DNA of 64,000 bases from Nannocystis exedens (GTDB lineage Bacteria; Myxococcota_A; Polyangia; Polyangiales; Polyangiaceae). Under the pieces are notes generated by a model. It was not told the origin of the DNA. It ran no database searches and was given only the letters and a program-made list of their open reading frames with translations. Made by a program: the position numbers and the translations under genes. The stretch lies in NCBI GenBank assembly GCA_945861885.1, contig CAMAVR010000003.1, forward strand, positions 34,540 through 98,539. Reading direction: 5' to 3'. Positions 6,347-6,448 of this stretch are shown here, piece after piece. Positions within the stretch are counted from its first letter, which is position 1. Every line of letters begins with the position of its first letter.

Positions 6347-6448
6347 CCCGTAAACGTGCCCGTGCCCGTAAACGTGCCCGGTTTTTTCTGCCCTGCTCCC
6401 AGCAAAGAAGAAACCGGGCACGTTTACGGGCACGGGCACGTTTACGGG
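6347..6448. repeat. perfect 35-nt inverted repeat of the hexamer-phased element CCCGTAAACGTGCCCGTGCCCGTAAACGTGCCCGG (two copies, 32-nt spacer)
   Basis: The left arm is 6347..6381. The right arm 6414..6448 is its exact reverse complement. It lies between the stop of the 6468..7286 gene and the 5' end of tRNA-Ser, so it is possibly a terminator-like hairpin. Confidence 0.9.

Follow-up and report, generated by a model that had tools for sequence, protein, structure and literature searches.

A repeated 35-mer in the window

Why would a 35-nt sequence built from five hexamers recur without a substitution across about 45 kb of one genome, mostly beside the ends of genes? The window examined here (the whole stretch of DNA that was analyzed, 64 kb, C3:34540-98539) comes from an assembly of 3.42 Mb in 89 contigs with 58.5% G+C. 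An exact search recovered the 35-mer, CCCGTAAACGTGCCCGTGCCCGTAAACGTGCCCGG, at all five places named in the original prediction: 6347-6381 (+), 6414-6448 (-), 41602-41636 (+), 49472-49506 (-), and 51558-51592 (+). None of 100 dinucleotide-preserving shuffles of the window contained a match, and 0 are expected by chance. TRF reported periods of 6 and 18 at these sites, in agreement with the 6-nt phasing that had been described, and the extra 18-nt unit of the 49472..49524 array was found as an overlapping copy with one mismatch at 49490-49524 (-).

The window holds one inverted pair and three single arms, all of them gene-less. The left arm of the pair (6347..6381, +) reads CC + CGTAAA CGTGCC CGTGCC CGTAAA CGTGCC + CGG, and the right arm (6414..6448, -) is the exact inverted 35-mer. 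Between them lies a spacer, or loop (6382..6413), whose ends, TTTTTTCT..AGAAGAAA, pair and lengthen the stem. When folded against shuffles, the pair 6347/6414 formed a perfect 42-bp stem (-101.2 kcal/mol, z = -16). The hairpin that had been predicted was thus perfect, but its stem is 42 bp rather than 35 bp long because CGGTTTTTT..AAACCG extends the pairing. The loop center, GCCCTGCTCCCAGCAA, resembles the center of D-type pairs elsewhere in the genome. Further, the minus strand of the outer terminal segment of the right arm (6449..6471, -) reads (T)TAG|GGCCTGATCTCATATTTGGCC, which is a D-type end; GGCCTGATCTCATATTTGGCC is also present on about 20 other arms in the genome. The flank outside the left arm (6328-6346, TAGCCCATCTCTGCTCTCC) resembles the outer segments seen in other copies only loosely. 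In a DUF4360 gene (6468-7301, -), the TAG stop codon coincides with the terminal CTA of the element (6468-6470).

The three single copies also lie at or in genes. A bare arm (41602..41636, +) sits between a cytochrome-c gene (39591-41543, -) and a rhomboid gene (41647-42369, -), 10 nt from the TAG stop of the latter, without a partner arm and without a significant fold. The arm at 51558..51592 (+) begins 15 nt past the TAG stop (51541-51543) of a Fur-family gene, within a 72-nt convergent spacer ahead of an M23 peptidase gene. The third arm (49472..49524, -) is expanded to eight hexamers, AGGAGGAG, and lies in the N-terminal tail of an OppC/DppC-type permease. It is in frame in the permease open reading frame (ORF; GTG 49424) and translated as GTFTGTGTFTGTGTFT, and the Pfam OppC_N match of the permease resumes at residue 36, directly past the array. 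These single copies folded no better than shuffles (z = -0.36, -1.31, and -0.49). Three copies had been said to be followed by (C)TTTT; we found a T-rich run after four of the five, the exception being that at 41602. At the gathering threshold, Rfam matched only a tRNA-Ser in the window, and no window copy lies in rRNA.

Copy number and sequence identity across the genome

Across the genome we counted 105 exact 35-mers and 186 to 188 arrays of the hexamers CGTAAA (A) and CGTGCC (G). Of 186 arrays, 135 have the order AGGAG, and GAGAG and [GA]n are among the other orders; the block consisted of five hexamers in 135 of the 186 arrays of this genome. The longest array, at C5:33211, has 27 hexamers. 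All 64 trinucleotides were tried as the phased word of hexamer arrays in this genome, and CGT/ACG gave 200 arrays versus 26 for the next. A 21-mer core of the repeat occurred 172 times in the genome, compared to 0 times for the reversed control, and 0 times among the 40 relatives searched. The motif is thus overrepresented genome-wide, well beyond the copies first noticed, and in its exact form is confined to this genome within that comparison. The copies are not assembly artifacts because their flanks are unique.

The number of 35-mer matches with 0 to 6 substitutions was 103/38/11/7/5/4/5, i.e., 103 unsubstituted matches and a substituted tail of 70. Recent spread, one of the explanations first offered, is the best reading of this identity. 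In a small sample, the D family, arrays carried 0 substitutions in 336 positions, compared to 8 in 210 for the outer ends; this contrast hints at homogenization or selection of the arrays rather than only a recent burst. No exact match of the repeat was found in viral contigs, and a phage origin was rejected on this basis.

The long arm at C5:33211-33372 consists mostly of (CGTGCC CGTAAA)n with CGCAAA variants and is paired with a normal five-hexamer arm. In this respect the arrays behave like slippage-prone minisatellites.

The arrays as probable ends of an IS5-family element

Our preferred reading, which we consider probable, is that an insertion sequence (IS) of the IS5 family has recently multiplied in this genome together with gene-less derivatives, and that the 35-mer forms the conserved inner block within its terminal inverted repeats (TIRs). 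The architecture of the element, its copy numbers, its placement, and the family assignments are shown by the data below. An array lies within about 260 nt of 39 contig ends. About 13 of these ends (type B) share one sequence that runs from the contig end, past the array, as far as TAGGGCCTGTACTCAGTTTCTCCTCTGACC (..GGCCCTA), with unique DNA beyond, and about 12 (type C) are mutually identical out to TAGGGTGCGTACTCAATTTCTCCTCTGACC, each flank beyond being unique. B ends lead into the start of a gene for a four-helix-bundle (4HB) protein, and C ends lead into the start of a transposase (MVRK..). In total, about 19 IS copies break the assembly at contig ends, and a second IS subfamily (A/A') has about 6 copies.

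Two decayed elements retain arrays at both ends. The first, an internally deleted copy at C29:1-1050, comprises an array (+), a 119-aa gene matching PF05635 ("23S rRNA IVS protein"), transposase remnants, and an array (-); the remnants, on the opposite strand, match DUF4096 (PF13340) and DDE_Tnp_1 (PF01609). The second, at C52:4400-5290, has inverted ends of ~200 bp that include the array. No intact transposase of the family was found in the assembly because the interior of the B/C IS is missing from it (the smallest contig is 3 kb).

Relatives of the element supplied the intact form. Searching metagenomes with an alignment of the array-linked 4HB proteins, we found 21 soil loci with 63 to 85% identical 4HB genes, which share the order CTAG|GGGC.TGTCC.. 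(20 to 30 nt), CGTAAA(CGTGCC)3-5 or close variants, and the 4HB gene; most of them have the same DDE transposase next, encoded on the opposite strand. Blocks in the IS lineage have 4 to 6 hexamers, most often 5. Contig L133 holds a complete element of ~1.34 kb with the 4HB gene at 918-1271, a DDE ORF at 1275-1652 (-), and a DUF4096 ORF at 1682-2026 (-). Its 62-nt inverted arms carry five hexamers, their 37-nt core is 100% complementary, and CTAG stands at both sides. Against NCBIfam NF033580 ("IS5 family transposase"; cutoff, 110), its transposase ORFs scored 128.4 and 110.5 bits. The ends of the soil relatives and of L133 thus identify the 35-mer as the form that the subterminal block of this IS family takes in the present lineage, with AGGAG in place of AGGGG.

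From the outer side inward, the complete element of ~1.3 kb consists of a (Y)TAG target, an outer end of 20 to 30 nt beginning GGGC.TG..., five CGT-phased hexamers, and CGG with a T-run; its interior holds the 119-aa 4HB gene (PF05635, S23p/Avd-like) and a convergent two-ORF DDE transposase (NF033580), followed by the inverted second end. The TIRs are ~65 to 70 bp long, and the hexamer array is their subterminal part. The copies would have spread by DDE transposition in trans into YTAR sites, and their near-perfect identity would stem from a recent burst, possibly aided by gene conversion among about 190 copies. A protein encoded by the element, the transposase or the 4HB protein, would bind the hexamers as iterated sites, and the single arms are presumably remnants. 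Among the findings that count against reading the arrays as IS ends is that elsewhere, array-flanked 4HB cassettes stand among host genes with no transposase within 4 kb, so that the arrays need not belong to the transposase.

A group II intron abuts the array-bearing end of an IS or MITE at C5:~109990-111870 (L144) and C56:~20870-20940 (L145) and, independently, in a metagenome relative (L132:19-1766). The evidence for the intron consists of RF02005 at 125.7 bits, an RVT_1 gene, and a domain 5/6 at 39 bits. Array-bearing ends, or sites next to them, may be targets into which the intron homes.

Gene-less derivatives and their outer ends

Arrays occur in 46 pairs, every one of them head-to-head (0 tail-to-tail and 0 in the same orientation), with spacers of 31 to 124 nt whose ends, CGGYTTTTTCT..AGAAAAARCCG, lengthen the stem. 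Recognizable outer ends are present on 77 arrays (B/C, 26; A, 25; D, 20). In the D-type pairs, YTAR stands next to GGC[CG]TGATCTC ends, flanking the D-type end in 11 of 16 arms. Direct repeats at D-type pairs were perfect over 4 bp in two of seven and matched at three of four positions in three of seven, one of the latter being the non-YTAR pair CACG/CACA. A genome-wide test for symmetric direct repeats exceeded the control only weakly, and palindromic words within the ends confound this result.

The D-type and A-type pairs have the properties by which a MITE is recognized, namely two IS ends, no ORF, and TIRs in common with an autonomous IS. The remaining 109 of the 186 arrays (59%; 59 paired and 50 solo) lack a recognizable outer TIR and share only CC[30-mer]CGGYTTTT. 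Without an outer TIR, these bare arrays do not qualify as MITEs, and the classical MITE model does not explain their origin. They may be decayed copies in which the arrays were kept homogenized, they may be survivors of palindrome deletion, or they may be products of a route acting on the block itself.

Placement relative to genes

Genome-wide gene calls came from a home-made codon-usage caller (2,682 genes, 90% coding), and the placement statistics are thus approximate. By these rough calls, 82% of the arrays fall between genes, against a coding share of 90% for the genome, and in 44 of 56 solos the distance to a stop codon is -4 to +60 nt. The REP-like dispersal at gene 3' ends and in intergenic DNA that the window copies had suggested therefore holds across the genome, within the limits of crude gene calls. 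Solos point in the direction of the upstream gene in 29 cases and against it in 20. Stop codons within 40 nt of the outer side of an array were TAG in 33 cases, TAA in 25, and TGA in 10 (genome-wide, 36/28/37%), and the TAG/TAA share was 85% versus 63% genome-wide (P = 6e-5).

Insertion at YTAR sites is a known habit of the IS5 family, and the placement fits such insertion combined with selection against insertions in genes. The stop codons TAG and TAA offer such sites, and selection would let insertions there persist; targeting of YTAR at stops together with selection would explain the array positions at gene ends. At least four copies lie in frame inside long ORFs, including that in the OppC-type permease (49472-49524).

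In-frame copies elsewhere in the genome are found at C1:118564-118593, C22:8431-8460, C27:27476-27505, and C1:18422-18451. Their translations include GHVHGHGHVHG, GTFTGTGTFT, and GHVYGHGHVYG, the last of which immediately precedes the GMGEP motif of an RlmN-like radical-SAM protein; ahead of each in-frame copy stands EKA, EKP, or KKP, contributed by the CGGCTTTTT tail. According to the rough gene calls, the TAA within the first CGTAAA ends five genes (C5:100332, C7:81388, C15:51684, C32:3000, and C43:24945), so that the element supplies the stop codon of those genes.

Arrays around 4HB genes in other bacteria

Inverted arrays of CGT-phased hexamers also bracket 4HB genes outside this genome. 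In other Polyangia genomes they bracket seven of eight genes of the PF05635 subfamily marked by LDVY..ARGSAxECAA, compared to 0 of 12 genes of other PF05635 subfamilies. The words vary by lineage (CGTGAG, CGTGGA, CGTGGC, CGTGAT/CGTGCT, and others), with CGT constant. The same arrangement surrounds 4HB genes in Anaeromyxobacter oryzae and in a Vicinamibacteria MAG (31 copies), and 53 of 80 metagenome 4HB loci have inverted CGT-hexamer arrays. In 125 kb of 4HB flanks, CGT/ACG was the only strongly phased trinucleotide, with 110 phased arrays in 47 loci versus 27 for the next best, and at period 6 only. CGT-phased arrays are frequent across the class, several genomes having 300 to 600 hits versus <30 for the reversed control. 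A PF05635 ORF lies inside long-stem inverted repeats in the C29 copy and at L012, L013, L018, L019, L023, L024, L096, L111, L125, and other loci. Rfam found nothing credible on six 4HB cassettes, the symR and miRNA matches being far below the gathering score. We found no description in the literature of hexamer-phased arrays around the 4HB family or of an IS with such ends.

A predicted model of the 4HB protein (pLDDT, 96.6) superposes on 2GSC (TM, 0.92), on 2RLD ("S23 ribosomal protein family"), and on the Avd protein of diversity-generating retroelements (4DWL and 8UB7). The 2GSC, 2RLD, and Avd structures have five chains each, and Avd works within an RNA-protein complex. A diversity-generating retroelement is not the context of the Avd-like gene here, the only RVT_1 hit in the genome belonging to a group II intron (RF02005, 125.7 bits).

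These observations bear on the strongest rival to the IS-end reading, according to which the arrays and the 4HB gene form a module of their own, like the 23S rRNA intervening sequences. The hexamers would be putative cognate sites of a 4HB oligomer, on DNA or on an RNA stem, the arrays would have spread or been homogenized without a DDE transposase, and the IS5 transposase would be a late passenger in this lineage. The link of the arrays to one 4HB subfamily, its recurrence in Anaeromyxobacter, Vicinamibacteria, and metagenomes, the change of words around a fixed CGT, and the match of the model to five-chain proteins all argue for it. So do the two stand-alone cassettes, whose surroundings are ordinary host genes and include no transposase within 4 kb, and the 59% of arrays in this genome without an outer TIR. 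However, coinheritance by itself would yield the array-4HB association, every gene-bearing copy found in this genome has IS5 transposase remnants or starts, and a DDE homologue also stands alongside three distant cassettes, L120, L125, and L086. Moreover, there is no known mechanism by which a 4HB protein would move DNA. We regard this account as possible though doubtful.

By analogy with the five-chain structures, it is an attractive idea that the five-hexamer array would be read by a 4HB pentamer. A more specific proposal, which we consider unlikely, is that the LDVY..ARGSAxECAA proteins are dedicated partners of CGT-phased arrays: each subunit of an Avd-like pentameric ring would read one word, so that the ring would cover about five hexamers (30 nt) of DNA or of an RNA stem, and protein and arrays would be a self-contained selfish module present across phyla, alone, on an IS5 transposase, or as an intervening sequence of rRNA. 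Were this so, a very widespread protein family would acquire a function and rRNA intervening sequences an origin.

The exact 21-mer CGTGCCCGTAAACGTGCCCGG, followed by CGGCTT.., also occurs inside other hexamer arrays, in a Coxiellaceae MAG (L007, 431-570), in Anaeromyxobacter oryzae (L009/L010), and in the Vicinamibacteria MAG (L011). The Coxiellaceae copy belongs to an inverted pair that lies upstream of an L19-like (rplS-type) ORF. To judge from these sequences, its presence in unrelated phyla suggests horizontal spread of the word set.

Other explanations for the repeat

Could the host itself keep the copies identical? Purifying selection might retain them as terminators, as stabilizers of mRNA 3' ends, or as a binding array for a host factor, and their position right past stop codons, the T-runs after most arms, the extremely stable hairpin of the pair, and the apparently higher conservation of arrays than of flanks would all be in keeping with this. 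We nevertheless find it quite improbable: single arms have no significant structure, solo orientation is mixed (29 same and 20 opposite), the exact motif is present in 0 of 40 relatives, and copies also lie within coding regions and at IS ends. In pairs, the T-runs are in the loop rather than past the stem. An intrinsic terminator, i.e., a G+C-rich hairpin and then a U-run, is rejected in particular, as the solos have no hairpin and the T-runs of the pair are inside its loop.

It is very improbable that the block was selected as a G-quadruplex motif. Each 35-mer does have exactly four G3 tracts (minus strand, GGG-N9-GGG-N3-GGG-N9-GGG), and metagenome relatives with (CGTGCC)4-5 give G3N3G3N3G3N3G3, but 9-nt loops are weak G-quadruplex formers. 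Arrays around the same gene family in other lineages (CGTGAA, CGTCAA, CGTGAT, CGTGAG, and others) have no G tracts, which excludes the G-quadruplex as a general principle.

REP/REPIN elements mobilized by a RAYT (Y1 HUH transposase), the analogy drawn at the outset, share the high copy number, extragenic position, and mixture of inverted doublets and singlets (188 arrays, 46 head-to-head pairs, and 82% intergenic), but the chance that this is the mechanism is next to nil, given that PF01797 had 0 hits in a genome scored as 100% complete (the same search was positive in 6 control genomes), that the unit is not itself a palindrome and single copies form no hairpin (z, -0.4 to -1.3), and that the gene between inverted copies is a 4HB gene with an IS5 DDE transposase.

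Comparison with known systems

The IS5 family and its MITE derivatives are the closest match. The DUF4096 and DDE_Tnp_1 transposase of L133 passes NF033580, the TIRs start with GG, CTAG stands at both sides of the complete element, and there are gene-less derivatives with inverted ends and a multicopy burst that fragmented the assembly. The element differs in that it has long TIRs (~65 bp, and up to ~200 bp in the C52 copy) with five phased hexamers, that it carries a 4HB accessory gene, and that over half of its derivatives keep the hexamer block alone with no outer end.

The ends of maize Ac/Ds contain subterminal AAACGG hexamers bound by the Ac/Ds transposase, and the ends of Tn7 and Mu contain multiple TnsB or MuA sites. 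The element resembles these in having iterated short words just inside both termini, an analogy that points to one element protein with several binding sites; the transposases belong to unrelated families, however, and the words here are strictly contiguous and phased. Rickettsia palindromic elements insert in frame into genes, and in-frame copies are likewise tolerated here, in the OppC-type permease of the window and in RlmN-like and other ORFs elsewhere, although the sequence family is different and most copies here are intergenic. The cyanobacterial STRR are dispersed intergenic heptamer arrays; they too repeat a short tandem word, but at period 7 rather than 6, and STRR are not known to be linked to an IS. 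Like REP, BIME, and REPIN elements, the repeat exists as hundreds of ~35-nt units that are nearly identical and lie at gene 3' ends, both singly and as inverted doublets folding into long hairpins; it differs in having no RAYT and a nonpalindromic, 6-nt-phased unit linked to a DDE transposase and a 4HB gene.

The 23S rRNA intervening sequences with an S23p ORF, known from Coxiella and Leptospira, are cut by RNase III, in Coxiella carry the ORF inside a 28-bp stem, and are regarded as selfish elements of unknown mobility (PMC4990558). In the element described here, too, terminal inverted repeats forming a long stem enclose a PF05635/TIGR02436 ORF. In contrast to intervening sequences, for which helix 25 or 45 of 23S rRNA is the expected place, its copies in the window are not in rRNA, as tRNA-Ser was the sole Rfam match there, its arms are CGT-phased hexamer arrays, and a DDE transposase is attached.

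The core of the finding is accounted for by the recent expansion of an IS5-family element and its derivatives, the repeat being the block at their ends. Seen from the window alone, the perfect repeat is the footprint of an active insertion-sequence family, which explains both the fragmented assembly and the genes that end in the repeat. The family is unusual for its long ends with phased hexamers, its Avd/S23p-like 4HB gene, and its hexamer-block-only derivatives that are tolerated in frame. We consider the wider pattern more valuable, namely that in several phyla inverted CGT-hexamer arrays flank one 4HB subfamily within a very common protein family. This association offers a concrete candidate ligand for the 4HB family and a handle on the mobility of rRNA intervening sequences.

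Related arrays and other repeats

The window also contains a second, related family of hexamer arrays, an inverted pair (CGCGCA/CGTTCA .. CGTGAT/CGTGCG) at 28340..28455, directly 3' of the stop of a gene at 28458-29825 (-). Its fold is stable (-95 kcal/mol, z = -11). We counted 23 second-family arrays (CGTGAT/CGTGCG/CGTGAA words) at 14 loci in the genome; besides the window site (28340-28455), sites include C1:33114-33227, C1:51921-52038, C8:36290-36388, C12:3964-4064, C25:16767-16942 and 22881-23012, C75, and C79. At C1:33242-33430 a second-family hairpin abuts the 3' half of a 4HB gene that is 57% identical to the 4HB gene of the metagenome cassette L125, and the arrays of L125 use second-family words (CGTGAT CGTAGT CGTGCG). 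4HB genes of the second-family lineage are also found at contig ends of C32 and C8.

Other perfect CG-phased hexamer arrays are present at C12:74245-74340, C1:79449-79488, C48:27284-27373, and C33:24409-24454, with the words (CGACCT)n, (CGTCTC)15, and (CGACCC CGACCT)n. Within the window, a perfect 9-mer tandem (CCTTGCGCT, 4.1 copies) at 8355-8391 lies beside a nested palindrome, and at 58409-58565, inside a 1,280-aa ORF (57373-61215), there are 8.7 copies of GGAGCT, 5.6 copies of GGCGTCGGGGTT, and 4 copies of CGCCTCCGC.
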